Of a stretch of 64,000 nucleotides of DNA, positions 6,424-35,838 are shown in pieces; within the stretch, counting starts at the first letter, position 1; every line of letters begins with the position of its first letter. Under the pieces are notes generated by a model. The model worked only from the letters and a program-made list of their open reading frames with translations, had not been told where the DNA came from and did no database searches. This DNA comes from an uncultured virus (IMG/VR IMGVR_UViG_3300029288_000087). Lineage: Duplodnaviria; Heunggongvirae; Uroviricota; Caudoviricetes. Where the stretch lies: IMG/VR virus record IMGVR_UViG_3300029288_000087. One strand, written 5' to 3'. Position numbers and translations under genes: made by a program.

Positions 6424-6428
6424 CGACA

Positions 6429-11064: not shown

Positions 11065-11071
11065 GGCGATG

Positions 11072-11100: not shown

Positions 11101-11130
11101 CTGCTTACAAGCGGCCCAGTTCCAGACTTT

Positions 11131-11370
11131 CTAGTATCTACGGCCTTTGATTGTTTTGGGGCGGGGCCTGGGGACCATCACGCGCTCGATCCTGCGGGCC
11201 GTTGTGGGCATGGCTTCGTACGCGTCGGACTGCACCTTCGAGCATGCCTCCAGCTCCGGGAGCCCGAGCTTGTTGACGGCTGGCGTGTACCACCAGTTGT
11301 GGGCCTTCAGGGCGATGATCTTGCCAGTCTCGTCGATGATGCCGCCGTCGTACTTGTGGAGCGTCGTCAT
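11131..11370 (-). CDS. Small hypothetical protein
   Basis: MTTLHKYDGG..., coupled to the upstream gene. Confidence 0.55.
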   Translation of the reverse strand: MTTLHKYDGGIIDETGKIIALKAHNWWYTPAVNKLGLPELEACSKVQSDAYEAMPTTARRIERVMVPRPRPKTIKGRRY

Positions 11371-16275: not shown

Positions 16276-16658
16276 CGTTTTTCCTTCCTCCGCTCGCTCG
16301 GCTTGATGAACACGATCTTGATCTCACAGACGCGCTTGCCCCACCTCCCTATCTTCTCCACGCGGGCCATCACGTCGTAGCAGCCGTCGCCGAACCCGGA
16401 GGAGACGCAGACTCCCAGGCCCTCGTGCCCCATGTCGTACGAGAAGGACTTCATGGCCGGGCCACCGTGCATCCGCTCGAAGAGCCCGAGCTTGTTGCAG
16501 AAGTCTTCCCAGTCCTTGCCGATCGATTTCGGCTTGTCCTCGCCCTGGCGGTGCAACACGTAGCAGGGGTCGCCGATCCACACGAGCCCCGCATCCACAC
16601 CGATCTCCCCGACCTTCACCCAGCTCGACTTTGTCCGTACCTTCTTCGTCGTCTTCAT
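16272..16658 (-). CDS. Hypothetical protein (DUF4241-like GVDAG/SGFGDG motifs)
   Basis: IGVDAGLVWIGDPCY and SSGFGDGCYDV. Confidence 0.55.
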   Translation of the reverse strand: MKTTKKVRTKSSWVKVGEIGVDAGLVWIGDPCYVLHRQGEDKPKSIGKDWEDFCNKLGLFERMHGGPAMKSFSYDMGHEGLGVCVSSGFGDGCYDVMARVEKIGRWGKRVCEIKIVFIKPSERRKEKR

Positions 16659-21419: not shown

Positions 21420-24400
21420 TTACGCCGCCTTTTTCTGCTCGGGGACGATCTCCCAGTATTGGAATCCGCCGCACTTGGTGCAGCAGCACGTCACGTCCTG
21501 CTTCTCGGTCCCCATCACGACAAGCTCGCCGCCGCACTTGCAGGCTGCCAGCACGCCCCCTGAGCGAGCCCGCGAGGCCCGTTCGACGGTGTTCTCCGAC
21601 GTGGCCTTGCCCTTGCCCCACACGGGCTTGTCCTTGGCATCATCCCACCGACCGATCCGTCTGTACTTCATCTGCTTGCTCCTTCCGCTGTCTGACCATA
21701 ACCACCACGCTGGCGGTGTCAACGACTTTTACGCGATCGTATACTCCCCAACAAGTACGGCACGATACCGCTCTCGCATGAAAGCAGCTCTTCGGCGCGC
21801 TCCGTCAGCCCGGCCTTGTCCCGCACGTCCACCCAACAGCGCTCGGTGTAGTTCCAGGGCGACCACACGCCGATGACCGCGCCGCCGCAGGCGTTCGCCT
21901 CCAACCTGAAGGTCACGCCGTCCGTGGTCCCCTCGTGCGCCAACGACTCGGCCAGCTCAACGTTGAGGTCGATGTCCGTGTCGTCCACGGGCTCGCCCGT
22001 CTTCGATGCGAGCCGAATGACGGTGCCCCACTTGTAGTCGTCGCAGGACATGTCCTCCGGGGCGTCCACCGTCAGCCCCTTGTCCCGCAGCCCCGTCGCG
22101 AGCCGTTCCAGGAACGCCAGTATCTTGGGGCCGTAGCTCTTGGCGATCCGCTCGGTCGCCTTGGAGTACTTCTCCTCAGTCATGGGGCGTGTCATTCGCC
22201 CAGCCTCCACACCTCGTGTGCACCAGCCATCAGCAGAGCCCGGTGGACGCAGGCATAGGACCAGTCTGCCAGTGCTGACGCGCTCCACACGGGGCACCGC
22301 TGACAAACGACGTTGGTGTCACGAAGGTGGCGGTAGATGTCCCCGATCGCCATCCCTGGTGCCACAGAAAGCAGCGACCGGACGGCTTTCGTCAGCGCTA
22401 CCCGTTCCTCCTCGGGCAGCCCCTTCGGCCAGCCGTGTCCGTCGCGCTCCACGTCCGTCAGGTACTTTTCCACATAGGTGAGATTCATCGGCTTGCTCCT
22501 GCCATACGTGTATGGCGACTCAATCCTCCCAGATCAGGGTGCCGCCCCGCGGGAGCTTCTGTGGCAACTGCTCGACGGGCAGACCAAACGCCTCCGCAAT
22601 CTTGGGCAACCAGGACTTCCACTTCTCATGGCCGATCCTTCCCTCGCCAGCGTCACCATAGCGGCTCAGGTGGTCCTGCTCGCGGGAGTCTTTCGAGCCC
22701 AGCATCCAACATGGCCCGTAGTAGGACTGGCACCCGACACCACTCCAGCCGACATGCCCGCGCGTCTTGCAGACACAAACCTTGCCCCTGCGCAGCACCA
22801 CGTCCCGCTCGGTTCCGTAGTCGGTCCCCAGCGAATGCCTCGAAAGCGTTTCCCTACTGGCTCGCTTCACCCACGGCATGGCTACTCGGCCTCCACCAGC
22901 TTGTAGAGCTTCTCTCCGACCTTCACGCGCACCTCGAACGAATCGGGGAACCTACGCGCAAGCTCCAGCGCACCCTCGGCAGTCTCGAACGTGCAGGTGG
23001 GCTTGTTGTCATACCGCTCCTGAAGCAGCGGCACCCTGGCACGAAGCGCTGTACTGTCCGGGCTCAGGGTATCCAGCAGGAGCACCGTCTTCTCCCTCAT
23101 GTCCAGCCACAGCGTCCCGTCCTCGCAGCGTGGAGGGATCCCTCCGCTATCATCTCCGATGGCGAAGCGCCCGCTCGGCACGTGCAGCCACAGCTTGTGG
23201 CCTCGCGCACAGAGCCTTCCCATGTACCGCCACGACACGTGCCTCTCCGGTCCAACCGCGGTTGTCGTTGCCATCACACCATCTCCTCGAATCCGCTCGC
23301 TGACATCTCGTCCGCAAGCTCGCCCTCGAACGTCTTGCCGCAGGTGCACGTCACCGTGTAGCTGGCGTGGACTCCGTAGTACGTCGTGCGGTAGCGCATC
23401 GGAGTCGTCGGCTTCAGCCCCCGCGAGTCCTCGGTGGACTCGTACTCGCCTTCGATGGACAGCTCGTGCTCGCCCTCCGGAGCATCCTTGTGCTCCTCCA
23501 TGTGCTCACGCACGGCGTCATCCTGGCCCTCCAGCTCGAACTCTGCCGACTTGAGTCCCTGACTGCACTCGCCGCAGCGCTTCTCCAGCGTCACCTGGAT
23601 GTTGATGTTGCCCTCGTCGTCCACTTCGCAGGACTGCTCTTCGGGCTCTTCGTCACCCTCGTACGATACGAACTTGTTGCAATCAGGACACCGCATCGCT
23701 TGCTCCCTTCAACGAACCTGACATAACCATCGCACCGGGCGGCGCAAGGGCTAGTCGTCGGAATCATCCTGGCCGGGCTTCCAGGTGCCGCTTGCGCCGG
23801 TCGCGTGCACCATCTCCAGGAAGCGCTGTGCTGCCTCGGGAGAGATACGCAGCCAGCCGCCATCCCTGTAGCTGTCCGCGTACGCCTCGAACCCACGATC
23901 GCGCAGCCCGTCACGCAGCCCGTCTACGCGCCGCTTGAGTGCCTCGTACTCGGCTTGCTCCTTGGCGTCCTCTGCCCGCTCCTCTTGCGGGTAGAACCGG
24001 ACCTCGCCCCTGCGCCCCAGAGCAACCTCCCCAGCCGCAGCGAGTCGCTTGATCGAGCCGCGCACCTGGGCAAGGCTCAGGGCTGTAGAGTGTGTCAGCC
24101 ACCGGGCGCTAGTGCGCCCCAGCCTGCCGCCTTGGGGGCACTTCGCCTTGTCCTCTTCGTACTCCTTGACCAGCGAGCGCAGCACAGCTGCGTCCACTTG
24201 CTTCAACCACTCTTTGGTCTTCGCCATAGCTTGCTCCTTCGACCAGCCTGACATAACCATCGCACCGGGCGGCGCAAGGGGCTACGTCGTCAAACCCAAA
24301 CGCTTCGCCGCGTCGTCGAGCGACTCGATCGTGAGGTTGCTGGGCAGCGCCGAATAGATGTTCCACCCGTTGCGGTTGCCCCGGACCGTGATGATCGCGA

Positions 24401-24866
24401 CGTGGCCTGTGCTGAACTGCCACGCCTCGACGTAGGCGGAAGGCGACTCGGGATCGCCCATCGGCAGTTGCCACTGGCAGCGCGCATCGTGGTCGTCAAG
24501 CCACCGTTGCAGCTCCGGGTAGTTGCTTACCCACGGCTTGTCGCTGTTGTCCTTGTCTCTGGTTGTTCTGGATCTCGGTCGTGACATGTTGCCTCCTCAT
24601 CCGCAGTGCGACAGCTCGCACCACTCGTTTGGGTTCTCGGGCACCGCGTCGCCGCAGGCCTTCAAGAACGCCTCGATCTGTCCCTGCTCTTGCACCGTGT
24701 ACGTGTACCACCAGCCAGGACAGCCCAGCCAGAGCCACTCGCCACGGTGCTCCGTCATGATGTCTGCCGGTTGCTGCCCAGGCCGCATCGCGTAGGGAAT
24801 ACCCCACAGCGAAAGTGTGTCCGCTTGCCTGAACAGCACCCGGATTCTCGCTAGCTTCTCTAGCAT
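21420..24866 (-). CDS. Run of small hypothetical genes (21420-21671, 21719-~22195, 22192-22488, 22520-22879, 22882-~23274, 23274-23696, 23751-24227, 24282-24587, 24597-24866)
   Basis: Co-oriented short ORFs, several with GGAGCAAGC-type RBS. Confidence 0.6.
21695..21722 (-). promoter_or_regulatory. Putative sigma70-type promoter
   Basis: Minus strand TTGACA-16-TATGGT upstream of RBS AAGGAGCAAGC. Confidence 0.55.
23717..24280 (-). repeat. Identical 34-bp direct repeats (23717-23750 and 24247-24280) flanking one gene; promoter-like
   Basis: CCTGACATAACCATCGCACCGGGCGGCGCAAGGG occurs twice; minus strand reads TTGCGC-16-TATGTC and shares TGGTTATG with the promoters at 21.7 kb and 38.3 kb. Confidence 0.85.
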
Positions 24867-24913
24867 CTTACCCTCCTGTGTCGCGGGGATGACATTGCTC
24901 CTGCTCCCAGTGT

Positions 24914-25330
24914 TCACAGCAGCGCGGGGATAGTTCCTGCCTTCGCTGCTGCGAGAACCGTGTCGATCACTTGCTGCGCCCATCCGCCCGGGTAGCCGCG
25001 CATGACTTTGATGACGGGCTCGCTGTGGATGAAACGCCAGCCGTCCCAATCGGGCGACCAGAACTTGTCCCATCCGACCTTGACGTTGAAAGCATGGACC
25101 GGCGACCACCCCTCACGGGCGGCGTTGAGAATCGCGGTGCCCAGGTTCAGGTAGAACCCGAATGAGCCACCGTAGTCGCCGCACTGGAGCGTGACGCGCC
25201 AGCATGCGATCGGCACCTCCGCCTCGGGCGGGTAGTTTTTCAGCAGCGTGTCAAAATCCTGCCTTGTGAGGCGCGGCAGCTTCGGCACCTCGTCCAGCCT
25301 CTTGAACTTCTTACTGTCCACTCGAATCAT
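24914..25330 (-). CDS. Array gene 16, hypothetical (MIRVDSKK...)
   Basis: Start directly after the leader motif. Confidence 0.75.
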   Translation of the reverse strand: MIRVDSKKFKRLDEVPKLPRLTRQDFDTLLKNYPPEAEVPIACWRVTLQCGDYGGSFGFYLNLGTAILNAAREGWSPVHAFNVKVGWDKFWSPDWDGWRFIHSEPVIKVMRGYPGGWAQQVIDTVLAAAKAGTIPALL

Positions 25331-25392
25331 TGACTTGCTCCTGCTTGTGGCGGGATGATTCCCGCAACGGTGCCGCCGGGTGGCGGCTGTGC

Positions 25393-25701
25393 TCAGCGGA
25401 AGAACTTCGCCTTCGGGTACATCGCCAGCACCTGATTTCTGGCGTCCTCCCGACTCTTGGCTCGCAGCGTACCGTCGATCGTGCAGTCGTCGTTGGCAAA
25501 CCAGTAGATCGGCGTGCCAAACCCGAAGTACGTGCCGTTTTCGTCGTAGGCACCGTCTGCACTCATGCGCACCTTGCGCAGCGTGATCTTGCCCGAGAAG
25601 GTAGGAGGCCCCTCCCATGTTCCGCGGCCCATTGCTGCGCCGCGTTTGGGGTCTCCGCACCATCCCTTGGGGTCGTGCGTCTTGTAGCTCGGTCTCGACA
25701 T
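25393..25701 (-). CDS. Array gene 15, hypothetical (MSRPSYKT...)
   Basis: Start directly after the leader motif. Confidence 0.75.
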   Translation of the reverse strand: MSRPSYKTHDPKGWCGDPKRGAAMGRGTWEGPPTFSGKITLRKVRMSADGAYDENGTYFGFGTPIYWFANDDCTIDGTLRAKSREDARNQVLAMYPKAKFFR

Positions 25702-25767
25702 GACTTGCTCCTGCGTTGTGGGGCATCGTAGCCCCGTTGGTGCCGCAGGCGAACCTGCGGCTTCGGT

Positions 25768-26169
25768 TCAGATGTCCCTGGCGGGAAGGTCTGCGATCAC
25801 GTAGTCGGCCATGCGGTCGTCACCGATGACGCCCGCTACGCGACGGATCGCTCGGATTGTTGCCTCCTCATCGGGCTTGCCATGCGTAGCCCCGTTCGCA
25901 GGCGGGATGAGGTATCCAGCCTGCGAACCGCGCCAGCCAGCGGGGACGCCCCTCGGTCCGCTCTCCAGCATGCCGTAGACGAGCCTGCGCCCGTCTCCGG
26001 GCTGCCGCACCTTGATCCACCAAACGCGATTGGCTTGGCACTCGTGCTCACCATTGTAGTCGTGAGCGCTCGCGATCACAGGCCAATCCTTGGCGACGAT
26101 ACGCACAGGGTTTTCGTCCGAAAGCGCGACGACGATCTTCTTTTCCGTGGTGGTGGTCTTTTCTGACAT
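25768..26169 (-). CDS. Array gene 14, hypothetical
   Basis: Start directly after a leader motif variant (AGCAGGAGTACGTC). Confidence 0.75.
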   Translation of the reverse strand: MSEKTTTTEKKIVVALSDENPVRIVAKDWPVIASAHDYNGEHECQANRVWWIKVRQPGDGRRLVYGMLESGPRGVPAGWRGSQAGYLIPPANGATHGKPDEEATIRAIRRVAGVIGDDRMADYVIADLPARDI

Positions 26170-26234
26170 GACGTACTCCTGCTTTAGCGTGGCTTGATTG
26201 CCACGGTAGTGCCTGGGCCATCCCAGGCTGCTAG

Positions 26235-26441
26235 CTACTCCACCTCGGTGTAGACGGTGCGTTTTGTCGCCAGCACCATCGGCTCACCGCAGCACGTGAA
26301 CACGTGGTCCTTGGGAGCGTCCCAGTAGTCCCCTGCGTTCGCGCTGTTTTCCGCACCGCACACATTACAGAGAAGGAAGGGGTGCGGGCCGGGCACACCG
26401 ATCTGGTTCTTCAGATCCGCGACTGTGACTTTGTTGCTCAT
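26235..26441 (-). CDS. Array gene 13, small Zn-ribbon-like protein
   Basis: CNVC...CCG; leader motif. Confidence 0.75.
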   Translation of the reverse strand: MSNKVTVADLKNQIGVPGPHPFLLCNVCGAENSANAGDYWDAPKDHVFTCCGEPMVLATKRTVYTEVE

Positions 26442-26516
26442 TGACTTGCTCCTGCTACTCGCGGCGACATTGCCGCAATGGTGCTACCCGGCCACGACGG
26501 GGCTGGTAGCGGTAGG

Positions 26517-26927
26517 TCAGCGGTGGAACTCCTCGAAGGGGCAGCGTCCGCTGGGAACGGGAGTGTAGCCTGTGCTCACGGCATCGTCCCAGGTGAGCCC
26601 GCAGGTGCCGCACGTCATGGGATCCTTGGCTTCGTCCCCGGGCTTGACCGGCTGCACCGGGAAGTCTGGAGGGACCACCACGGTGTGTGTGGCGGGCACT
26701 GGCTCTTCGTCCATCTCATCCACGACGGAGATGTCTCGCCCGTCGTTGTCGGTCGGGTAGCTCGGGTAGCAGCGCCCGTTGAGCGTCTTGCCCCACGTAG
26801 TGGGAACGTCGAAGCCCTCTTCGTTCTCGTCCATGAGATCGTTGGCGAGCTTCATCGCCTGCTCTTCTGTCTCGGCTGCCACGTCGAAACAGAGCCATGC
26901 CTTGGCTTGGCATCGGTATGTTTTCAC
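26517..26927 (-). CDS. Array gene 12, acidic hypothetical protein with C-terminal CxxC
   Basis: GTG start after the leader motif. Confidence 0.75.
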   Translation of the reverse strand: MKTYRCQAKAWLCFDVAAETEEQAMKLANDLMDENEEGFDVPTTWGKTLNGRCYPSYPTDNDGRDISVVDEMDEEPVPATHTVVVPPDFPVQPVKPGDEAKDPMTCGTCGLTWDDAVSTGYTPVPSGRCPFEEFHR

Positions 26928-26987
26928 GTTGTTGCTCCTGCTTTGTGCGGGTCTCCCCGCGTTGGTGCCGCCGTGTGGCGGCTCGAC

Positions 26988-27215
26988 TCATGCCCCTTGC
27001 ACTCGCTTGGCGAAGTCCTTGAGCGCTTCCTCGTACTTGCTGAAGTAGTGCCCCCACACGTACTCGCTGTGCTCCATTTCGTGGGTGAGCACTTCGACGT
27101 GCGTGACGTACGGCTCGATGCCGTTGCCGATCTTGCGCAGCACGACGCGCGAAGGAAGTTGCTGCCCCTTGATACCGGGACTTATGGGGCCTTCGGCCAG
27201 ATGCCTTTGTTCCAT
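26988..27215 (-). CDS. Array gene 11, hypothetical
   Basis: Leader motif; WGHYF motif. Confidence 0.75.
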   Translation of the reverse strand: MEQRHLAEGPISPGIKGQQLPSRVVLRKIGNGIEPYVTHVEVLTHEMEHSEYVWGHYFSKYEEALKDFAKRVQGA

Positions 27216-27277
27216 GACGATTGCTCCTGCTTGGTGCGGGTCTCCCCGCGTTGGTGCCGCCGTGTGGCGGCTGGCAG

Positions 27278-28141
27278 CTACGCTGCCGCGCTGTTGAGGT
27301 GCCCGGGTAGCATCCCCGCAGCGAAGCCCAGGCGGCGGTAGATGTACGCCGTGAGGAGCTTGGTGAGCCGCTCGCGTCCGTACTTCGCCCAGTACCCATC
27401 CGCTGCCACGCCCTGTTCCCAGAGCGCGTGCAGCACGCTGTGAACCGGCCTCGGCATGTGCCCAGGCCCGCCAGCTTCGTTGATCGCGTTCATCAGCATG
27501 CTGGGCACGTAGTAGGGTTCCTCCATGTGGCCCAGGATGTGGCTCTTGGGGTCACCGTCGAGCACGGGCTTGCCGCTCTTGTCCTTCATGAGGCAGGCCC
27601 AGCAGTCCGCACCCGAAGGCTTGGGAACCTTCAGAGCGAACAGCGCGTCCATGTAGTCGGAGACGAACTTGCGAGCCCGCTTCTTGAGCTTGATGTCGCT
27701 CCGGGTCTTCTTGTCAGTCGCCAGCGGCGCACCCTTGACCTTGCCGGATTCCGTGACGGTCATGCCGTCCGTGAACACGTAGGCCTTGCCAGGAGACGCC
27801 CAGGGGTATTCCCCCGGCTTGTACATCTTGACGTACCAGATCCCGGCATCCGTGTAGATGGCGAGCCCTGCGGGCATCAGCGCGTTCAGACGACCCTTTG
27901 TCGTGGCCGTCTTGAAGCCGCATGACGAGATGATCATGCCGCCCGACTTGCGGAACACGGCGATCTTGCTGCCGAACAAGTGCAACTCGATGTTGCCCGC
28001 GTTCAGGCAGACCGACGTGTTCTCGCTCAGCTTGCGAGTCGTGACCGGCTTGCCGCGACTCATCAGCAGTGTCCCGCCGATGACGCGGAAGAAGGTCTCG
28101 CCTCGCTTGTACTTCCTTCCTCCGAAATTCAACTTGTCCAT
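27278..28141 (-). CDS. Array gene 10, hypothetical (MDKLNFGG...)
   Basis: Leader motif; GFKTATTKGRLNAL motif seen in phage proteins. Confidence 0.75.
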   Translation of the reverse strand: MDKLNFGGRKYKRGETFFRVIGGTLLMSRGKPVTTRKLSENTSVCLNAGNIELHLFGSKIAVFRKSGGMIISSCGFKTATTKGRLNALMPAGLAIYTDAGIWYVKMYKPGEYPWASPGKAYVFTDGMTVTESGKVKGAPLATDKKTRSDIKLKKRARKFVSDYMDALFALKVPKPSGADCWACLMKDKSGKPVLDGDPKSHILGHMEEPYYVPSMLMNAINEAGGPGHMPRPVHSVLHALWEQGVAADGYWAKYGRERLTKLLTAYIYRRLGFAAGMLPGHLNSAAA

Positions 28142-28221
28142 GACTTTGCTCCTGCTTGGTGAGGGGACATCCCCTCGTTGGTGCCAGCCTAACCATGAAC
28201 GGTCAGGTGGCAAGAGGCGGG

Positions 28222-28887
28222 TCAGTCGCGAGCCCAGCAACCGGGCAGCGTGACCGTTTCGGGCAGGGACTTCAGGAAGGCGATCACGTCCTCCGGGACT
28301 TCCTCGTACAGCCATTGGCTGCCGTACTTGTATCCACACTCCGGGCACGGCTTGTTCAGCAAGCCCTTGGGATGCTCTTCTGGGCGCACCCATCCCGTGG
28401 CCTTGGTTTCCCTCTTGTGTACCCGGTAAAAGGAAACGTCCAAAGGATGAAGCGTGCTCAAGGGCAGTGACAGAAGGAACCGCTGTCGCTCTGTCACGGC
28501 GGTCGAGCCGTTCTTGACCAGCTCCGCGACGCCGGATTCCACCAGATTGTTCCGCGCAGTGTAATGCTCAGTCTTGAGCATGTACTCGATCACTTCTACC
28601 TTTTCGGTCACATCCCAATCCTTGCGCTGGTGCTCGCAACCGGCTCGCATGTCGTTCAGGTGCCAGCGGTTCCACACCTCTGCCAGCTTGGCGACATCAA
28701 TCCCCGGGAACGGCTGGGTGACGTTGACCAGATCGATCTGACCGCAGCCACCCTTCGCATCACCATTACTCAGCGGTCCTTCAACGCCGGTCAGAGAGAG
28801 GCGCTTTCCGTCCCACTTGATGGTCACGAAGACCTTGCCGCAGTCACCTGTGCCCACCAGCACATGCTTTGTGAATGGTTCGATCAT
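28222..28887 (-). CDS. Array gene 9, hypothetical (MIEPFTKH...)
   Basis: Leader motif; WNRWHLNDMRAGC and CPECGYKYGSQW motifs. Confidence 0.75.
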   Translation of the reverse strand: MIEPFTKHVLVGTGDCGKVFVTIKWDGKRLSLTGVEGPLSNGDAKGGCGQIDLVNVTQPFPGIDVAKLAEVWNRWHLNDMRAGCEHQRKDWDVTEKVEVIEYMLKTEHYTARNNLVESGVAELVKNGSTAVTERQRFLLSLPLSTLHPLDVSFYRVHKRETKATGWVRPEEHPKGLLNKPCPECGYKYGSQWLYEEVPEDVIAFLKSLPETVTLPGCWARD

Positions 28888-28957
28888 TGACTTGCTCCTG
28901 CTTGTGGCGGGATGATTCCCGCAACGGTGAGCACGCCGGGGAGGCGCGCTCGTAAGG

Positions 28958-29467
28958 TCAAACGGCTGCGCGCTCGCTGCGAAGCTCATTGACCAGCGCT
29001 CGACGGTGAAGATCGGCTTTGTAGTACCGATCACAGTTGTACGTGTTCAGCATGGCTTCGCGGATCCGGTACCACGCTTGCTCTTCGCTGGCCTCGGAGC
29101 GACCCTGCCACGTCCGCTCGACTTCAGGAATCGGCGTGACGTAGGCGTTGACGATCGCCCAGTTGTCTTCTGGCCTGCCGTTGAACGAGATCGCGGGCGC
29201 GAGGCCGAATCCGCAGCCGGGTGCGCCGAGCGATCCCATGGTCTCACACGTGTCAGCGTCCAGGCCGCACTGCTCGACGAACTTGTCGAACTGCTTGCGG
29301 GTGAGGATGGCGCAATACTTGCGATGCTTCCCGTGAGGGAATACCTCGCTGTAGTCCGCGCTCTCATCGCCCTCTGTGCATTGCCACTGCCGAATGCACG
29401 GTGGCCTGTACTCCGAGACGCTAGCTCCGCGCGCTATGTCAAACGAGTAGATGACTGAGAACTTCAT
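28958..29467 (-). CDS. Array gene 8, hypothetical
   Basis: Leader motif. Confidence 0.75.
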   Translation of the reverse strand: MKFSVIYSFDIARGASVSEYRPPCIRQWQCTEGDESADYSEVFPHGKHRKYCAILTRKQFDKFVEQCGLDADTCETMGSLGAPGCGFGLAPAISFNGRPEDNWAIVNAYVTPIPEVERTWQGRSEASEEQAWYRIREAMLNTYNCDRYYKADLHRRALVNELRSERAAV

Positions 29468-29538
29468 TGTGACTTGCTCCTGCTTGTGCGTGGCACCATG
29501 CCACGTTGGCGCGTGCGCTTGCGGCGCACGCTTGGATG

Positions 29539-29961
29539 CTACGGAAGCAGCATCGCGCAGATGTACAGGTAGCCGTAGCTCGCGTTCGGAGTCGCCACGA
29601 GGCGAACGCCGTTCTCTTCGATCTCAATCAGATCGCGACTGTCAGGGCTCACGTACTTGCTCGCCACGCGCTTGTGCAGCTTGTCCAGCAGCCCGGAGTC
29701 CCCGTTGAGCCTCTTCTGAAGATCCGGCCACCGGGACTGGTCGCCATCGGCCCCTTGCCGATTCGGCACGAGGTCCACGGACTGAACCAGCTTCTTGTCC
29801 TCGATGATGCGCGTGCGCCCGCCGACACGTTTGCGAATGCGCTGCGTTTGGTAGCTCGACTGAAGGATCGCTCGCGCGCCCCAGGCGACTGCGCAGTCAC
29901 GGTCAACGAGCCAGCCGCACCATGCGGGCTTGGGCCTGCTTGCGTTCTTCTCTTCTTCCAT
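29539..29961 (-). CDS. Array gene 7, hypothetical (MEEEKNAS...)
   Basis: Leader motif; C-terminal ATPNASYGYLYI. Confidence 0.75.
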   Translation of the reverse strand: MEEEKNASRPKPAWCGWLVDRDCAVAWGARAILQSSYQTQRIRKRVGGRTRIIEDKKLVQSVDLVPNRQGADGDQSRWPDLQKRLNGDSGLLDKLHKRVASKYVSPDSRDLIEIEENGVRLVATPNASYGYLYICAMLLP

Positions 29962-30038
29962 TGACTTTGCTCCTGCTTGTGGTGCGGGCACCATACCCGC
30001 CCTAGTGCCTCGCCGCTTCCTCACGGCGAGGCAGGCTT

Positions 30039-30416
30039 CTACTTGCTCCCTTCTCCCTGGCCGACATGTGCCCGCAAGCGCAGGAGCGTCCACCCTGCGG
30101 ACTTGCGGCCTGAGTATCGGCGACCATCGATCATGGTCGCAAAGCACTGCACCACGACGGGGCAGTACGCGCCCGGAGGGTGAATGCGGTAGCGCCCAGT
30201 CAGAGCCAGCGGCGCAATGATCTTGTCGCCAGCCCAGTTCTTGAGCACAAACCGCCCGCCCTCCTCGCAGACGTGGCCGATGACCACGCCTTGGGTATGA
30301 TCCACAACCGGGCCGATAGAGGAGAACTGCGTCCCGTTGTGTTCAACGAAACCGATCTCCACCTGCGCTCCGGTCGCGGTCACACCGCTTTCGGAATGAA
30401 AGGTTGTCTTGTCCAT
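30039..30416 (-). CDS. Array gene 6, hypothetical (MDKTTFHS...)
   Basis: Leader motif. Confidence 0.75.
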   Translation of the reverse strand: MDKTTFHSESGVTATGAQVEIGFVEHNGTQFSSIGPVVDHTQGVVIGHVCEEGGRFVLKNWAGDKIIAPLALTGRYRIHPPGAYCPVVVQCFATMIDGRRYSGRKSAGWTLLRLRAHVGQGEGSK

Positions 30417-30491
30417 TCGACTTGCTCCTGCTTGTGCGTGGCACCATGCCACGTTAGCGCCATCGTAGCGAGCTGGCTAGATGGCGGGCGG

Positions 30492-30626
30492 TCAAATCTC
30501 CGTGTATGCCACAGACACTTGACGCCCCGGGTATTTTGCCTGGGCCTTCCTCTCCGCGTCGTTGTGCGACTTGGCTCTGATCATTCCCACCTCTTCCCCG
30601 TCCACGTATACGATATATACCTTCAT
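30492..30626 (-). CDS. Array gene 5, 44-aa protein absent from the ORF track (MKVYIVYVDGEEVGMIRAKSHNDAERKAQAKYPGRQVSVAYTEI)
   Basis: Translated by hand; exactly fills the space between two leader units. Confidence 0.75.
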   Translation of the reverse strand: MKVYIVYVDGEEVGMIRAKSHNDAERKAQAKYPGRQVSVAYTEI

Positions 30627-30722
30627 TCGACTTTTGCTCCTGCTATGGTGCGGGACCATGCCCGCCCTGGTGCATGCGCGCGCGAACGCGCATGCGAGGG
30701 ATTGTGCTGCTGTGGTGGGATA

Positions 30723-31883
30723 CTAGGCGGCGAGCGCTTGGGAGAAAATCTTGCCCGCGAACCGTTCCAGGTCGAGCACGTCGTCGCCGATCTGCGCCGA
30801 GCGTGCCTTGCGGGGCGCACCAGCGAGTGCCTTCGCCTCGATGTCCTGGCTGAGAGCCGACACGGCCTGCGCCGCATCGAGCCAGGAGATGCCCTTGCCG
30901 AGCGTGTGAGGCACGCGCGGGTCGGCGCTCTGCACCATTTCGACGACGCGCTTCGCCATGTCCTGGGAGACCTGACCCTTGAGGATCGTGTTCAAGCGGT
31001 CCACGGTCAGTTCCTTCTCACCCGCCGCGTTCAGCGAGTCGAACATCGACTGCCGCCGCTCGGGCAGAAGGAACTGCGATGTGCTGTCCTTGATCATGCT
31101 GATGGTGGCCTCGTGGTCGAGCTTGCGCGTGTCTTGCGACCAGTCCACGTCACGGTCGAGCCGCTGCCCGAGATGCACGCGGCGGAAGATCCGCTCAGTC
31201 GTCATCCCGTTCATGCAGGCCAACCGCAGGAAGAACGCCGTGATGCCCGCTGCCGTGCCGCCCCAGTCCGAATTGCGATACTCGATTCCCAGGACGTAGG
31301 GGTCGCCGCCGACCATCTGCACCTGCGGAATGACCATCTTGATCGCGAACTGGAGATCCGTGCCGGTCGCTGAGAACGGGACCGCGCCCGACTTGTCAGA
31401 GACTTCCAGCACGGTTTCGAGCAAGGGGCGGGTGTCGATCGTGTTGTAGCTGGCGGAGAGAACCGCCATGCCCAGTTCCACGTCGGGCTTCTTGCGCGCG
31501 CGCACGAGGTGAGCCGGGGGCCTGCCGTCCTTGCCGACAAGGTGCGCCCAGTCCGTGTTCAGCACGTTCTGCAAGAGGTCGCGCGCCCAGTCCGTGTCAG
31601 CGTCCAGGCAGGCGTTCGCGAAGTTCGCGTTCACTACCTGACCGATGCCGTACACGTGGCTGAGAGCGTGGTCGTGCAGCACGAGCGTATCGTGCTTGTC
31701 GAGCACCATCTGGACGTTGTTGTCCTGCGTGACCGCGAACTCCACAAGCTCCGCGGGCGCTTTGCGGTCCACCGGCATCTCGCTGAACACGCGCGCGACT
31801 TGCGCCTTCGCGTTCGGGAGGTTCCGATGGATCACTTCGTCCAGGCGTGCCGCCGCCTGTTCTGCCGAAACATTCTGCATCAT
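30723..31883 (-). CDS. Array gene 4, DUF932-like protein
   Basis: VLSASYNTID, RNSDWGGTA, FLRLACMNGM, RRVHLG motifs. Confidence 0.75.
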   Translation of the reverse strand: MMQNVSAEQAAARLDEVIHRNLPNAKAQVARVFSEMPVDRKAPAELVEFAVTQDNNVQMVLDKHDTLVLHDHALSHVYGIGQVVNANFANACLDADTDWARDLLQNVLNTDWAHLVGKDGRPPAHLVRARKKPDVELGMAVLSASYNTIDTRPLLETVLEVSDKSGAVPFSATGTDLQFAIKMVIPQVQMVGGDPYVLGIEYRNSDWGGTAAGITAFFLRLACMNGMTTERIFRRVHLGQRLDRDVDWSQDTRKLDHEATISMIKDSTSQFLLPERRQSMFDSLNAAGEKELTVDRLNTILKGQVSQDMAKRVVEMVQSADPRVPHTLGKGISWLDAAQAVSALSQDIEAKALAGAPRKARSAQIGDDVLDLERFAGKIFSQALAA

Positions 31884-31985
31884 TTGACTTGCTCCTGCTT
31901 TAGTCGGGCCGCGACATGCGACCCGCTTGGTGCCATCCTAACCATTGCTGGCCGGGTGGCAAGGGAGGGCGTGACAGGCAATGTC

Positions 31986-32369
31986 CTAGTCCACGATCTC
32001 AGTGAGCGAGCACTGGAAAATCTCGTGGATGTAGTCCTTGATCTCGCGGCGGTCGCGTCCGGTGATGCGCAGGACGATTCCGTGCACGAGCGAAGCCTTG
32101 ACGATCACGGTGTGCTCGGTCCAGCCATCGTACATGCCAACATCGTTCATGTGGTGGTAGCTGGTATGGATCACCAGCTTCTCGCCAGTGGACGCATCGA
32201 AGTCGAACGTGCATCCGTTGTCGAACCCGGAGCCGTGCGGCAACCTGTTCAGAACGAGCTGCTCAATCGTCTCGCGGTGCTTGACTCGCCATTCCGCATT
32301 GCCCTTCTCGGCACAACGCGCGTAGGCGTCAACGGATGACGCCAGCCTCTTGTAAACTGGCTCTTTCAT
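31986..32369 (-). CDS. Array gene 3, hypothetical (MKEPVYKR...)
   Basis: Leader motif; LPHGSGFD and YHHMNDVGMYDGWTEH motifs. Confidence 0.75.
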   Translation of the reverse strand: MKEPVYKRLASSVDAYARCAEKGNAEWRVKHRETIEQLVLNRLPHGSGFDNGCTFDFDASTGEKLVIHTSYHHMNDVGMYDGWTEHTVIVKASLVHGIVLRITGRDRREIKDYIHEIFQCSLTEIVD

Positions 32370-32444
32370 TGACTTGTGCTCCTGCTTTGTGCGGCGGGAT
32401 TGCCGCATCAGTGCGCGTACCCGTGCGGGCGTACGCGCGTGGGG

Positions 32445-32741
32445 TCAACCGACCCGCTTGGACGCGCCAGCGGTTTCCATCTCCGCCACCAGTGCGCGCA
32501 CCGCAGCGTCGCCACCCTTGTCGCTGTAGACGTGGTGCGGACGCCCGATGCGCCCCTCGAAGTCCCACCCTTCGTAGCCGTCGCGGCGCGCGAAATCGAT
32601 CCGCGTTCCGTCTGCGCGTTCCAGGTAGAACTCTCCGAAGCCCATGTGATGCAGGGTTCCGAAGCGGTTGCAAGCGTTCAGGAAGTCGGAATCCCCGACA
32701 ACCTTCTCGCTTCCATCAATCTGCTTGATCGTGTGAGGCAT
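32445..32741 (-). CDS. Array gene 2, hypothetical (MPHTIKQI...)
   Basis: Leader motif. Confidence 0.75.
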   Translation of the reverse strand: MPHTIKQIDGSEKVVGDSDFLNACNRFGTLHHMGFGEFYLERADGTRIDFARRDGYEGWDFEGRIGRPHHVYSDKGGDAAVRALVAEMETAGASKRVG

Positions 32742-32812
32742 TGACTTGTGCTCCTGCTTTGAGAGGCGGCACCATACCGCCTTCAGTGCGTACGCGGGCG
32801 CGTACGCGAGGC

Positions 32813-33160
32813 TCAGTCCTCTGCGGTCTCTGGACGGGAGAACGGAAGCTGGTGACAGCCGCAACCGTGCGGGCAGCACCATGCTTCCTTGAAGTCGTTT
32901 GTGCAGTTTCGGAGGCGTTCCGCTAGCTCGTAGATTTTGTTCGCCAGGGTTTCGTTGCACAAGCAATCGGCCCCGCAGAGCGCACGCTGGTAGCGGCGTT
33001 CGTCAAAATCAGTCCGAGCGTTCCACCTCGGATGGAAGTAGCCACCGGAGCTTGCTTTCCATTCCGCGTACACCACAAGCAACCACTCGCGCGGCTGATC
33101 GTGAATGTTCTCGTACAGGTCAGCGTATGCCTCCGGTGCGTGAGACCATTCGCATGTCAT
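32813..33160 (-). CDS. Array gene 1, hypothetical (MTCEWSHA...)
   Basis: Leader motif. Confidence 0.75.
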   Translation of the reverse strand: MTCEWSHAPEAYADLYENIHDQPREWLLVVYAEWKASSGGYFHPRWNARTDFDERRYQRALCGADCLCNETLANKIYELAERLRNCTNDFKEAWCCPHGCGCHQLPFSRPETAED

Positions 33161-33197
33161 GGTTTGCTCCTGCGCTGTGCTGACGGAATTGTCAGCG

Positions 33198-33328
33198 GTC
33201 GGTACCCGGGAATCGAACCCGGATCTCGCGGCACCAGTTACGGTGTCGCGTGACAGCTTGCTCCTAGGCGCGTCAAACGCACCATGCCCGGCGGTCAGAT
33301 GCCCCGTCAGGCCTTTTGGCTATACCGA
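33198..33328 (-). ncRNA. tRNA-like RNA with expanded anticodon region (not a canonical tRNA)
   Basis: Acceptor TCGGTAT/GTACCGA, mini D-arm GCC-AAAA-GGC, stem TGACGG/CTGTCA enclosing ~50 nt, long variable arm, T-arm CCGGG-TTCGATT-CCCGG; no encoded CCA. Confidence 0.7.
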
Positions 33329-33329
33329 T

Positions 33330-34260
33330 TTTGAGGTTGCTGGCGACAGGTTGACTATTGTCGCCAGAGAGCCCCTGCCCACGTCTTAGCGTGAGCGGCA
33401 GGAGCAGGAGCGGGATCTACTTCCCCCACCACGCTGGTATGCCCAGTCACGGGCGCGTGATGGTTTCGGAACCTGCCTGGAAGCCGTACGGTCAAAAGCC
33501 CCGGGCTATCATGCGGCAGGCTCGCGCAGCTTGGAGCAGCGCGACGATCCAAAATGTCATCCCCGTTGAATTCGATTCACGTTGCCGGTTCACCTCAGTA
33601 GCAGCGGTCCGATTTGGCATGCGTCCCCATGGACAGCCGCGGACTTGCTTGCCCCCCGTCAAAGACAAGGGGCTGAGTTTACCCGGTACGCGGGATAGTA
33701 GCTCTAGCCGGAACGGAATCTCTCCCGTGGCCCGCGGGTATCAGCCGCAGCGCCCTGCGCGTAGGACGGCTCAGGCGATCTGAGGGACGGAGCCCAGAGG
33801 CGCAGTCACGCCGCACGGTACGCCGTGCGGTTAGGCGAGCACCGCTTGTCCGTTCGCTTGTCGGTTCCGCTTGCTAGTCTTGCTTCAGGCGTTCACGGAT
33901 CCAGGAGTCCACGCGAGACCTTGAGCCTTACCGAGCCGCCAAAAGCGACCCCTATACGCGCCGGTCCGAACGGAAACCTGCCCGGTTCCCTGGTGAGGGG
34001 AGGACTTGCGCGCCCCAAATGCTGGCGCAGCAGCGGTCACATGGGCCGGGTAGACCCGTGGCAGCCATCCGCTCGACTAGCGCGCGTTGCCGCGTCGCAA
34101 TCGGGGCAGATGTTGCCCTATTGCTTGCAGGGTACGCCCCGCAAGGCTGGCGTGGTCCGGTCAAGGGCACCGGCTAGGCTCACCCCACAACAGGCAGGCT
34201 CGCCAGGGGAGCCGCCCCGCCAACCGGGGCCGCGCTCCACCCTGTTGTTGTCCTGCACCC
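33330..34260. ncRNA. Putative large structured non-coding RNA region
   Basis: No convincing ORF over ~0.9 kb in an otherwise packed genome; many inverted repeats; contains the split match to the array leader motif; strand unresolved. Confidence 0.55.
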
Positions 34261-34279
34261 CACCCCCTCCCCTCCTATA

Positions 34280-34350
34280 CGTGGCGATAGTGTTTCGCTA
34301 TCAGCGCGTACAGGGGGTACATCGTGGCGATAGTGCACTGGTATAGTGTA
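34280..34350 (-). promoter_or_regulatory. Repeated CGTGGCGATAGTG boxes (34280-34292, 34323-34335; partial ATAGTG near 34343): candidate promoters/operators of the ncRNA-array unit
   Basis: Exact 13-bp direct repeat in an AT-richer patch; minus strand reads CACTATCGCCACG. Confidence 0.5.
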
Positions 34351-34451
34351 TCGTATTGCAGCGTCACGCGGTGTATTGTGAGGTGGTGTGATGTATCGCT
34401 GGAGCTTGCTGTCCAGCTTGGGAACGGAGCGCGCAGGGAGCGCGTGCGACG

Positions 34452-34904
34452 CTACCGCGTGCGGCGACGGTGCGAACGGCTACGGTTTGGCGTGGCCTTG
34501 CGCCGGGCGGCGAACCAGATGCCTGCTACGGCCAGCGCGACGGCTACCGCAACGTAGACCTTGCCGTACGGTTCGCAGCCGGAACCGTAAAGAGCGGGCA
34601 GGGCCAGCAGGGCGGGGCACTGCTTGCCGTGCGATGGCGCAGGTTGCGCGGGCTTCGGGGGCTGCACAGACCCCCACGGCACGCATCTGCTCAGCTTTGG
34701 ATCCCACCTCTGATCTGGTGCGAGGCAACCTCCCTTGCCGCCGTTCGCACCGCACGCGTCCATGAAGGCGTTCAGCGCAGAGCCCTTTGTCATGTCGAAG
34801 GGGATGCTCAGCGCCTGGGCCTGCTGCGCGCAGTCAACAGCCATCGTCGTGGCGGCATCCGCTGGAAGCGCGGCCATCTGCTTGTAGAAGTCTTCGTAGG
34901 TCAT
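34452..34904 (-). CDS. Cys-containing protein with C-terminal TM helix and basic tail
   Basis: VYVAVAVALAVAGIWF followed by ARRK...RRRTR; GATAAT 5 nt before ATG. Confidence 0.65.
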   Translation of the reverse strand: MTYEDFYKQMAALPADAATTMAVDCAQQAQALSIPFDMTKGSALNAFMDACGANGGKGGCLAPDQRWDPKLSRCVPWGSVQPPKPAQPAPSHGKQCPALLALPALYGSGCEPYGKVYVAVAVALAVAGIWFAARRKATPNRSRSHRRRTR

Positions 34905-34945
34905 GCCCCATTATCCACGACCCCCCGGAATCTCCAAGCGCGCGG

Positions 34946-35838
34946 CTACCTCTTGCGTTTGACCGGCGCAGCCGTCTCGCGCTCCTGTCTCACGTCGCAC
35001 AGCAGTGCTTCCACCGTGCGCAGCTCGCGCGCAAGTGTCAGCTTGCGCACCTCCAGCCACTTCTCACCTTGAAGCAGCATGCGCTTCGCGGCCCCCAGCG
35101 GACCCCACCAGGAGAGCCCGGAGCGCTTTATCCTGTCCGCGCGCCGCTGCGCTGCCTCGAACGTTGGGAAGACGCCTACGAGCCGGAAGTGAGGGAAAGG
35201 TTGCCGCGCTTCGACGAGGACGGCGTAACGACTGCTCGCGGACCTTTTGGGCGGGACAAACACCGTCTTCTCCCGTAGGATGTTTCCGTCCCCGTCTATA
35301 GTGGTAACGCGGAGACGCCTTCCGGGCATCAGCTTACGATCTCTGACATTCAACAACGTCAGCGACGACATCGGATGAGGGTTGGGCTTCTTCATCTCCC
35401 CTTCACCACATCCAGCGCAACCTTGTACAACTGCGCCAGCGCCATCGGTAGCCCAGGCTTATGGTCGCCACGCCCGCAGCACCTGCACCCGCCGTTCGTT
35501 GCCATGCCGTGCGGCGTGATGAACATGCAGCTGTTGTCCCCACAACCGGCACGAGCCGTGACCGCTGCGACGGCCTCCACCAAGCGCGCATCCTCTCCAC
35601 GAACAGGCGCGTCCTTCGCCAAAGTCGCGGCCAGCGTCCAACCCAAACGCCAAGCCGTTCCCTCTCTCCCTTCGTACGGCGTCGGATTCTTCTCAGTGCT
35701 CCGCAGGGCGATGTAGCTCAGCGCGCCCTCCAGGACGTAGTACACCCCGCTGAGCGGGCCGATCCCCGGCCTGTTCACCGCTTCGTTCACCTTGTGCAGG
35801 ATTTCCTCCTGCTCTGGTGTGTGTCTACCCACTGTCAT
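34946..35838 (-). CDS. Two hypothetical genes (34946-35395, 35392-35838)
   Basis: Coupled ORFs with RBS. Confidence 0.55.

Follow-up and report, generated by a model that had tools for sequence, protein, structure and literature searches.

A structured two-hairpin leader is repeated before each gene of an accessory cassette array in an integrated mobile element

Sixteen co-oriented ORFs (44–386 aa) and 15 intergenic units form an array at 24914..33160 of the window, the whole 64,000-nucleotide stretch of DNA that was analysed. The array and the mapped parts described below lie on the minus strand. On the 5' side of each ORF, hairpin A, an R-C-Y linker, hairpin B, the leader GCAGGAGCAAGTCA, and the start codon follow one another. 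The layout is restricted to this locus, hairpin B covaries, and the cassettes turn over between two elements. Judged from the sequence, there is about an even chance that the unit is a portable expression adaptor that acts at the RNA level and accompanies each cassette of an accessory operon, whose role is probably anti-defence. It would then keep the ribosome site insulated, shield the ends of mRNAs, and offer homology at which recombination can occur.

The ORFs start at 33160, 32741, 32369, 31883, 30626, 30416, 29961, and 29467 (genes 1–8) and at 28887, 28141, 27215, 26927, 26441, 26169, 25701, and 25330 (genes 9–16). All 16 small ORFs of a first-pass annotation are present, and they are unrelated, as it had stated: Blastp of the proteins against each other finds no paralogues, the sole match being 20 aa long (E = 0.002). 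The intergenic units span 32815–32739, 32447–32367, 31988–31881, 30725–30624, 30494–30414, 30041–29959, 29541–29465, 28960–28885, 28224–28139, 27280–27213, 26990–26925, 26519–26439, 26237–26167, 25770–25699, and 25395–25328. All 15 have the two hairpins and the leader ascribed to them, but they are 66–108 nt long rather than 60–100 nt. Units 1–15 score 40–57 bits with a covariance model (CM), and the hairpin originally quoted at 25742–25761 is hairpin A of unit 14. Gene 1 is preceded by unit 0 (33158..33205; CM 25.6 bits, E = 5e-05), with hairpin B (GCTGAC-AATTCC-GTCAGC) and the leader GCAGGAGCAAACC-ATG. The blocks of the units are mixed, units 8 and 15 having the same hairpin B behind different types of hairpin A; units 10 and 11 are almost identical.

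Two hairpins and the leader are predicted in 15/15 intergenic units, with a mean z of -4.2 against shuffles, and two hairpins in 10/10 units of a relative, L069 (z about -4), whereas the mean z is -0.63 for four further gaps between co-directional genes elsewhere in the element. Hairpin A has a stem of 6–12 bp and begins with G in 15/15 window units. Hairpin B has a stem of 5–7 bp, a loop of 3–6 nt, and a fixed distance to the start. Its core helix is 97% paired in 27 distinct units, compared with 35–54% in slid controls, and is independently predicted by RNAalifold, with the SD left unpaired. Both sides are changed in four of the five pairs. In accordance with the initial claim that the stems vary and the pairing is kept, the double-change cells of hairpin B number 30, while shuffled alignments give 8.8 ± 2.4 and reach 30 in 0/500 cases; these counts are of non-independent events because the units are paralogues in two related elements. 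The proposed bias of G-U pairs to the mRNA strand is present but weak. The core stems have 10 and 5 G.U pairs on the sense strand versus 1 and 1 C/A mismatches, but total fold energies are -428 (sense) versus -435 (antisense) and -277 versus -293. The antisense strand folds equally well or better, and therefore a role as DNA hairpins is still conceivable.

The conserved core of the unit is a ribosome site. The AGGAG of the leader is able to base-pair with CCUCCU in the tail of the host 16S rRNA, and the sole SD of each array gene comes from its unit. GCAGGAG occurs in 28/28 CM rows, 6–10 nt ahead of a start codon that is ATG in 27 rows and GTG in one. AGCAGGAGCA is present in 25/28 rows, GTCA directly behind it in 24/28, and the closing C with R-C-Y, described earlier as standing before hairpin B, in 26/28. 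Pairing with 16S rRNA does not account for the fixed SD flanks (AGC.., ..CAAGUCA), which point to a specific binding factor. The covariance model, run over the 3.57-Mb genome, gives 16 significant matches, all of them array units and none elsewhere, so that the motif is not dispersed genome-wide; two weak matches (15.1 and 16.5 bits) lie immediately downstream of the array. A genome-wide search for the 14-mer leader with at most one mismatch places 7/7 matches within the array. The units have no excess of intrinsic terminators, and most have no sigma-70 sites.

The comparison rests on one relative, L069, from a metagenome. Units, leader, and head all recur in L069, yet only 4 of its 11 cassettes are shared, and these stand in a different order. 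Therefore, the cassettes are shuffled, as had been proposed. Homology between the window and L069 breaks at unit borders; for the gene-4 cassette it begins directly behind the upstream stop codon, and the upstream genes are unrelated. In this alignment, the module moves together with the downstream ORF. In genes 4 and 10, hairpin A is retained in L069 via compensatory changes, and hairpin B is swapped for another hairpin. The shared proteins differ at 26–56% of residues between the elements. The backbone genes are otherwise nearly all different, and outside the arrays just one protein, which is AcrVA2-like, is common to both in the DNA compared.

Gene 4 (30723..31883), the best-conserved cassette, has 74% aa identity to r7 of L069. 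As a lead only, it is DUF932-like (phrog_1362, E = 1.3e-23; score 0.97 and TM 0.79–0.83 against atlas DUF932 clusters). Hairpin A of its leader (31961–31931) contains sigma-70-like hexamers, TTGCCA-16-TAGGAT (31962–31935), and the leader is promoter-like in both elements. The array is presumably a single transcription unit, but may be more than one transcript because of this promoter-like leader. Gene 10 (27278..28141) has a Kyano_Gp96-like N-terminal domain (PF23790, E = 6e-07; phrog_554) and 53% aa identity to r11 of L069. Follow-on genes with decayed units occupy 22486..24925. The decayed units are a leader without a start (24925–24888), two 45-nt repeats (CCCTTGCGCC..ATGGTTA..AGGAGCAAGC-ATG) whose ends lie at starts 24227 and 23696, and a hairpin with AGGAGCAAGCCG-ATG (22542–22486). 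The array neighbours are AcrVA2-like, ParB-like, DUF2786/DUF7168, Dam methyltransferase, and SNF2 helicase genes, consistent with an establishment or anti-defence region. Virion or conjugation genes are not recognised in the integrated mobile element, and no relaxase is identified in it.

Upstream of the array lies a head that co-occurs with it in 2/2 elements, as expected by the first-pass annotation. The head block (34253..34344) comprises two exact copies of CACTATCGCCACG (34335–34323 and 34292–34280) and then a G-run (34275–34253). It is 86% identical to L069 over 92 nt, with flanks that cannot be aligned, and its 13-mer has exact matches in the genome only at the two head positions. On sequence grounds, the block is a candidate promoter/operator or other protein-binding site. 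The next ~1 kb (33273..34252), in which no ORF passes a codon-position GC test and none is convincing, is presumed to be a long 5' untranslated leader or spacer. Its fold z is -2.24 on the minus strand and -0.75 on the plus strand, and nothing above 8–11-mers is conserved in L069. It is followed by a pseudo-leader without a start codon, AGGAGCAAGCTGTC (33252..33265), with AGGAGCAAGGCTGTC at the equivalent place in L069, and by a tRNA-like piece (33206..33247) consisting of a CACC/GGTG hairpin (33247–33230) and a T-arm-like hairpin, CCGGG-TTCGATT-CCCGG (33222–33206). The latter is GGCAG-TTCGACT-CTGCC in L069, with the loop kept and both sides changed in 4/5 stem pairs. In the upstream region, only the head block, the pseudo-leader, and the T-arm-like hairpin are conserved. 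Of a tRNA-like element claimed here, the T-arm-like hairpin stands, but ARAGORN finds no tRNA, and Rfam gives only sub-threshold alignments (mascRNA, 15.4 bits, E = 1; tRNA-Sec, 12.2 bits, E = 8.9). The array motif, said to recur upstream, is limited there to the one pseudo-leader. The claim of a cognate guide-like RNA is not supported: the ~1 kb is unconserved and no more complementary to the leader than expected by chance (p about 0.05 and 0.41), and the upstream region has no Rfam family match.

The invariant 14–20 nt around the SD could be the site of an element-encoded regulator, either a stoperator-like DNA repressor that blocks elongation when integrated or an RNA-binding translational repressor of all cassettes. 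Conservation past the SD core, the single orientation of the motif and its confinement to the array locus, its retention in L069 although the backbone genes nearly all differ, and the conserved pseudo-leader fit such an operator array. We consider it rather unlikely, since no candidate regulator is common to both elements in the DNA compared, and two sequence-variable, pairing-conserved hairpins are left unexplained. Hairpin A with its 3' R-C-Y might instead mimic an acceptor-stem minihelix (G1-C72, R73, C74, C/U75). Cleavage of the long transcript by host RNase P, with the help of a 3' processing enzyme, would then release single-gene mRNAs beginning with hairpin B. In the cited portion of one report, G292, G293, and U294 pair with D73, C74, and C75, and hairpin model substrates are cleaved (PMC11143913). 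The near-constant closing C and R-C-Y, the G that opens hairpin A, and the type A RNase P RNA of the host suit this idea, as does the T-arm-like hairpin with conserved TTCGAyT loop and covarying stem ahead of the first cassette in 2/2 elements, around which the mascRNA and tRNA-Sec alignments put an acceptor-like stem. However, those alignments are far under threshold, hairpin A has 6–12 bp versus 12 bp for acceptor plus T stem, and its loops are not T-loops. In addition, the fourth base is not A in L069 (ACTAC, ACCCC, GCTCTC), the position ahead of the hairpin shows no U preference, and most host tRNA genes apparently do not encode CCA. Such tRNA-like punctuation is unlikely.

Integron arrays have unrelated co-oriented ORFs, folded attC sites conserved in structure over sequence, and variable content. 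The present array is like them in these respects, and its hairpins could be folded single-strand recombination sites for the tyrosine recombinase of the element, with the head, which has direct repeats, as the primary insertion site. We regard this as very unlikely. The recombinase (1301 aa) is encoded 14.5 kb beyond the array end and reaches 38.7 bits with an integron-integrase model that has a cut-off of 265, there is no adjoining IntI or attI, and the unit lies 5' of the ORF, carries an RBS, and has two separate hairpins instead of a long imperfect palindrome. The head is 1 kb away from the first cassette, and the source-run contigs contain no credible excision joint. It is equally hard to credit the unit as a promoter, whether an N4-like hairpin promoter recognised by a non-canonical RNA polymerase or an Frpo-like single-strand promoter on entering DNA. 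The dimensions of hairpin B and its constant distance to the start would suit a promoter, as would the hexamers in gene-4 hairpin A of both elements and a gene set like the leading or early regions in the cited part of PMC11541004. Yet no RNA polymerase domain is detected in the window, VirD4 and VirB4 are not found in the 95%-complete genome, -35/-10 boxes are missing in most units (3 promoter-like sites in 12 kb versus 1.7 ± 1.2 expected), and G.U pairs favour the sense over the template strand. A selfish intergenic repeat of the REP, MIRU, or BOX kind, functionless for the element and spread inside the operon, could account for the mixed unit blocks. It is highly improbable, given that 16/16 significant CM matches are within the array, that the repeat provides each gene's sole SD, and that structure is kept by compensatory change across such diverged elements.

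Among known systems, the T7 early region, ompA, aprE, and ermC have 5' stem-loop stabilisers or intercistronic hairpins processed by RNase III/E. In these and probably in the array, cistron-end hairpins delimit stable segments of polycistronic mRNA. To our knowledge, the known stabilisers are single sites with individual sequences, whereas the array unit is a repeated portable module joined to a fixed ribosome site. Start-associated sequences (SAS, GGGATAGGAGCCC) are scattered across the right arm of a phage. In the related ESAS repeats a 17-bp sequence is conserved, and the authors, in the sections cited, found little evidence favouring mRNA hairpins (PMC3203893; PMC12699233). SAS and the array leader alike are asymmetric conserved motifs with the SD AGGAG, a few bases before many start codons, in one orientation and often with inverted repeats just upstream. 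In contrast to SAS as described there, the array motif precedes each gene of a single contiguous array, its units have two sequence-variable hairpins with compensatory changes, and its host element is not recognisable as a phage. The T4-type PeSL (promoter-early stem-loop) is described as combining a strong sigma-70-like promoter with an effective terminator (PMC2839356, PMC4122927). Like array units, PeSLs, as portrayed in these extracts, lie between small, non-essential ORFs of a hyperplastic region as short composite regulatory repeats, and insertions, deletions, and swaps among relatives map to both. However, most array units have no promoter or U-tract terminator, only the gene-4 leader being promoter-like, and their core is a ribosome site. 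The array belongs with SAS and PeSL regulatory cassettes and is neither an integron nor a guide system; to call it an undescribed system was an overstatement. Leading-region anti-defence islands of conjugative elements, for which selection for fast, strong expression is reported, likewise have one-directional small, mostly unknown genes adjoining methyltransferase, ParB-like, and anti-CRISPR-like genes. They differ in that the element here has no identified relaxase, T4SS, or Frpo-type promoter, and the cited parts of the published descriptions give no repeated structured leader per gene (PMC11541004, PMC13478746).

If the unit is a portable expression adaptor, the integrated element would carry a ~10-kb accessory-gene operon preceded by the head, ~1 kb of untranslated sequence, and the T-arm element. 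Each ORF would have its own 5' module, consisting of G-C-closed hairpin A, an unpaired A/C-rich R-C-Y linker, hairpin B, and an SD (invariant AGGAG with fixed flanks, 6–10 nt ahead of the start codon), and the module would act at the mRNA level. Hairpin B would shield the ribosome site from upstream sequence and give every foreign ORF a uniform open, strong start. A host endonuclease may first cleave the unpaired linker, and the hairpins would then guard the upstream message at its 3' end and the downstream message at its 5' end; the host encodes RNase E/G, RNase Y, and RNase P. The repeated modules would also provide homology for cassette gain, loss, and reordering. The units mark the points at which genes are swapped between related elements.

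The array comprises 16 consecutive ORFs on the minus strand, running from 33160 (start of gene 1) to 24914 (gene 16) and encoding proteins of 44–386 aa. The 16 proteins show no paralogy by blastp (the sole match covers 20 aa, E = 0.002), 12 of the 16 cassettes have no family match at the thresholds used, and a PDB sequence search with genes 4, 6, and 10 returns nothing at E <= 0.1. As the first-pass annotation described, the spacers share one layout. All 15 (66–108 nt) present their parts in identical order: the stop codon and 8–30 nt; hairpin A, which begins with G in 15/15 units and ends with C; an unpaired linker with R-C-Y first; hairpin B; a few A/C-rich bases; and the leader GCAGGAGCAAGTCA, or a near variant, followed by the start codon. 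A 16th unit lies ahead of gene 1. The conserved motif containing the SD is found in 28/28 rows of the covariance model (CM), all on the coding strand. Its SD is positioned 6–10 nt from the start codon (ATG in 27 rows, GTG in the remaining one), and the SD core is complementary to the host 16S tail (...CACCUCCUUUCU). The rule of a closing C followed by R-C-Y holds in 26/28 rows.

Beyond the array, a decayed leader (AGGAGCAAGC..ATG) precedes at least four more genes, as far as 22486. Two of these leaders follow a 45-nt repeat; the near-identical intergenic copies (CCCTTGCGCCGCCCGGTGCGATGGTTATGTCAGG..AGGAGCAAGC; 24227-24290 and 23696-23750, minus strand) are related to hairpin A of genes 4 and 10. 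In the CCCTTGC..ATGGTTA subfamily, sequence is kept as well as pairing, and -35/-10-like hexamers are present. The exact repeats of the array reach about 44 nt and interrupt the source-run contigs built with k = 31; the cassette order is taken from the original assembly. An independent relative and an even depth of about 18–23x speak against an assembly artefact.

The units fold better than their shuffles (mean z -4.2, range -2.2 to -5.5); as a control, the four other co-directional gaps of the element (40–160 nt) give a mean z of -0.63. After model alignment, 87% of the cells in the 16 window units are paired, and cells with both sides changed number 20, versus 7.2 +/- 2.1 in shuffles (0/500 reach it). 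When the relative is included (27 distinct units), the 5-bp core helix of hairpin B is 97% paired, with both sides changed in 4/5 pairs. The double-change cells then number 30, versus 8.8 +/- 2.4 in shuffles (0/500), in an alignment that was fitted to the CM; with all units being paralogues drawn from a pair of related elements, these cells are not independent events. Sliding the partner by 1–3 columns lowers pairing to 35–54%, and RNAalifold, unprompted, predicts the same helix and leaves the SD open. In accordance with the earlier remark that stem sequences differ while pairing is kept, the substitution pattern indicates that the unit structure is under selection. The accompanying claim of a strand bias stands in part. 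The core stems contain 10 (window) and 5 (relative) sense-strand G.U pairs versus one A/C mismatch each, favouring sense stems, but the total folding energy of the sense strand is no better than that of the antisense strand, partly because the sense linkers are A/C-rich and unpaired.

The motif is confined to one locus. With up to 1 mismatch, the 14-mer leader has 7 copies in the 3.57-Mb genome, all inside the array, and the backwards-read control has 3. A CM of hairpin B and leader finds 16 significant matches in the whole genome, every one in the array, with three matches elsewhere at E between 0.3 and 0.6 and two more weak matches in the window immediately downstream of the array. The unit motif is neither the general ribosome site of the host nor a dispersed repeat, and the concern that it might be an ordinary genome-wide RBS falls away.

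In JGI metagenomes, the exact 18-mer leader occurs at 33 loci, of which 31 are chance singles and two, the contigs L069 (9888 bp) and L061 (2628 bp), are genuine. Both contigs derive from a single sample, with a 148-nt overlap that contains 144 identities. Together they carry 11 model-significant units and one decayed unit with the layout unchanged. The comparison rests on this single relative, the contig of which ends within the array. The window array encodes homologues of four of the relative's 11 cassette proteins (gene 4, 74% aa identity; gene 6, 66%; gene 1, 44%; gene 10, 53%), and the other seven have none. The cassettes are ordered 4, 6, 1, x, 10 in the relative and 1, 2, 3, 4, 5, 6, 7, 8, 9, 10 in the window. 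Therefore, only one of the two elements has gene 5, genes 7–9 have been replaced, and gene 1 has changed position.

For gene 4, nucleotide homology spans the entire unit, from the stop codon of an unrelated upstream gene onward. Genes 4 and 10 retain hairpin A via compensatory substitutions and have hairpin B swapped for a different hairpin, and the homology of genes 6 and 1 starts only at the leader. Judging from these borders, the unit belongs to the downstream ORF, and the breakpoints lie at various positions within units, as expected if repeated modules recombine with each other. The suggestion that cassettes are shuffled is thus borne out in this pair of elements, with changed order and swaps at units. 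Upstream of the arrays, the backbones of the two elements have only an AcrVA2-like gene in common; thus, the array and its head, a conserved block ahead of it, behave as a module of their own.

Wider searches return no further array. The exact 18-mer leader has 22 loci in 185,579 species genomes, all chance singles without the unit layout, and 2 chance loci in IMG/VR, where a variant leader has 7, also chance. A head 16-mer has 19 loci in IMG/VR, none with a second repeat or an array, and a protein-based locus search there with gene 4 and 50070-50972 gives none. Megablast and blastn against phage records give no match, nor does a search with the region upstream of the array across 92 further genomes from the class. 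A search of IMG/VR with the gene 10 protein leads to a phage contig (L036, 89.6 kb) with a 38%-identical homologue. In this contig (locus positions 567-12810), a distinct start-associated repeat, ACCAAGGAACCACCATG, accompanies 6 gene starts, and paired hairpins are mostly absent.

The region upstream of the array is organized identically in both elements. The head (34344-34253, minus strand) is a 92-nt block, 86% identical in the relative, with two exact copies of the 13-mer CACTATCGCCACG and a G-run; genome-wide, the exact 13-mer occurs only at these two positions. A stretch of about 1 kb, unalignable between the two elements, separates the head from a pseudo-leader, AGGAGCAAG(G)CTGTC, a leader-like word without a start codon. 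A CACC/GGTG hairpin and a T-loop hairpin follow. The latter reads CCGGG-TTCGATT-CCCGG in the window and GGCAG-TTCGACT-CTGCC in the relative, with 4/5 pairs changed on both sides. As predicted from the window alone, the head and this T-arm element accompany the array in both elements.

The T-arm element, earlier termed "tRNA-like", is a hairpin with a T-loop sequence and a covarying stem, not a recognisable tRNA: ARAGORN finds no tRNA gene in either the window or L069/L061, and Rfam 15 over 24500-35000 gives 0 matches at the gathering score or E <= 1. Its best Rfam alignments are sub-threshold and tRNA-like (mascRNA, 15.4 bits; tRNA-Sec, 12.2 bits). Its match to host tRNAs is confined to the generic T-loop and it has no repeat elsewhere in the genome; therefore, an att remnant is unlikely, and we reject that reading.

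The first-pass annotation also spoke of a cognate guide-like RNA in the 1-kb stretch, which we do not uphold. The coding strand of the stretch has a somewhat stronger fold than the other strand (z -2.24 vs -0.75), and conserved blocks are not found between the two elements. The best duplex that the leader forms with the stretch is no more favourable in energy than with shuffled sequences (p about 0.05 and 0.41). The word GCTCCTGCTCCTGCC (33393-33407, minus strand) includes the exact reverse complement of 9 leader nt (AGCAGGAGC); the energy of its duplex with the leader is not significant, and the relative has only a partial match.

The window corresponds to C3:62001-126000 of a metagenome-assembled genome (3.57 Mb, 205 contigs, 62% G+C) from a small phylum of 93 species genomes. 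Between ~6.4 and 52 kb lies a run of minus-strand genes that has the look of an integrated mobile element. A 1301-aa protein (6432-10334, minus strand) contains a tyrosine recombinase domain (residues ~230-520), its other ~800 residues belonging to no known family; a search of the 92 other genomes of the phylum finds no homologue. An AcrVA2-like protein of 347 aa (16658-17698, minus strand; Atlas feature score 0.98, a structure match passing the bar, no Pfam family) has a 30%-identical homologue upstream of the array in the relative. Further genes encode an SNF2 helicase, a PRTRC-type ParB-like protein, a DUF2786/DUF7168 protein, a Dam methyltransferase, a YspA-SLOG protein, and an RRXRR/HNH protein (46926-47963, minus strand) that matches the N-terminal half of the IscB model at 112 bits, below the cut-off of 175. 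A Cas12f1-like TNB (TnpB-type) fragment (63327-63959, minus strand) lies close to the window end. Virion protein families are not found among the element's genes. The leading region of a conjugative element goes with a T4SS coupling protein or VirB4 ATPase, whereas VirD4 and VirB4 (PF02534, PF03135) have 0 matches in this 95%-complete genome, and FtsK-like matches sit on contigs other than that of the array.

A search with gene 4 in 60 host relatives finds no match outside the same genome. A second mobile element of this genome (C2:28000-56000, beyond the window) encodes a 32%-identical gene-4 paralogue (C2:39595-40620). It has repeated sigma-70-like promoters (GTTGACAAAC..TAnnnT) ahead of small genes, and the 12-mer ACACGTGTTCGC has 22 copies on C2. 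At C12:1523-8600, also beyond the window, the 22-nt word CATGGCCCGGCATTCTCCGGGA is repeated 16–17 times in about 7 kb, and may form a CRISPR array or other repeat array.

Among known cassette systems, the integron is rejected. In an integron, each ORF has on its 3' side an attC site, a single imperfect palindrome whose outer core sites are conserved, whereas here two hairpins and an SD leader lie 5' of the ORF and are inherited with it. IntI is absent: the sole recombinase is 14.5 kb past the array end and scores 38.7 bits with TIGR02249 against a cut-off of 265. The source-run contigs contain one candidate cassette joint (side 21, likeness 85), which is not credible. The start-associated sequences (SAS) of Cluster K phages resemble the unit in having a conserved asymmetric SD-containing motif just before starts in a single orientation. 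However, they are defined by the consensus GGGATAGGAGCCC with up to 2 mismatches (PMC12699233), and the leader GCAGGAGCAAGTCA has only AGGAGC in common with it and falls outside this definition. The associated ESAS are 17-bp inverted repeats conserved in sequence and lacking a compensatory pattern (PMC3203893), whereas the stems here vary in sequence and covary. The unit is not homologous to the Cluster K SAS. PeSL cassettes show indels and swaps between relatives at the repeats, as here. However, each PeSL unit carries a sigma-70-like promoter, whereas here only the gene-4 leader has a promoter-like site on the coding strand. The stem-loop of a PeSL acts as a transcription terminator; hairpin A sits just past each stop codon but has no U-tract. 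Because most units have no promoter, the array is not PeSL in the strict sense. The unit belongs in kind with mobile regulatory cassettes such as SAS and PeSL, and a literature search outside subscription journals yielded no account of an array whose every gene carries a two-hairpin SD module.

The units show no excess of sigma-70 sites or U-tract terminators. In 12 kb, promoter-like sites number 3 (1.7 +/- 1.2 expected) and terminator-like sites 8 (8.6 +/- 2.9 expected). The one promoter-like site within a unit on the coding strand is in hairpin A of gene 4 (TTGCCA-16-TAGGAT; TTGTCA-16-TATGGT in the orthologue), and both versions are flagged by the consensus scan. Hairpin A begins 8–30 nt past each stop codon. 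The array most likely forms a single long operon, in which gene 4 may have an internal promoter. Such an operon could be punctuated by tRNA-like signals, with RNase P cutting one transcript into about 20 hairpin-capped, single-gene mRNAs; the T-arm element would end an untranslated leader, and hairpin A with R-C-C/U would form an acceptor-stem-like minihelix on each cassette. The G...C closure followed by R-C-Y (26/28 rows) and the T-arm element ahead of the array fit this reading, as do the D73-C74-C75 contact and the hairpin substrates described in a review of RNase P (PMC11143913). However, the stems of hairpin A are just 6–12 bp, its loops are not T-loops, and base four of the linker is variable, and we consider this processing route improbable. 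If true, it would be a bacterial counterpart of mitochondrial tRNA punctuation, on portable gene cassettes.

Most likely, each ORF of the operon carries a standard RNA adaptor. Hairpin B would shield the ribosome site from upstream sequence, and the A/C-rich linkers would hold that site open. A host enzyme would probably cut in the R-C-Y linker, after which hairpins A and B would cap the ends of the adjoining cistrons. The host encodes RNase E/G, RNase Y, and a type A RNase P RNA; the RNase J C-domain is not found in it.

If this adaptor model is true, the unit is a natural, plug-and-play adaptor for expressing whatever ORF is captured: it would insulate the ribosome site and protect the mRNA ends, and would double as the handle by which recombination moves that ORF. 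It would be a compact part for synthetic operons. Because its hairpins show clear compensatory evolution, the array is a tractable case for the unsolved function of SAS. The orphan cassette genes probably serve anti-defence, and their products are candidate new anti-defence or host-takeover proteins. The adaptor would explain how large, fast-changing sets of orphan genes on mobile elements are uniformly expressed.
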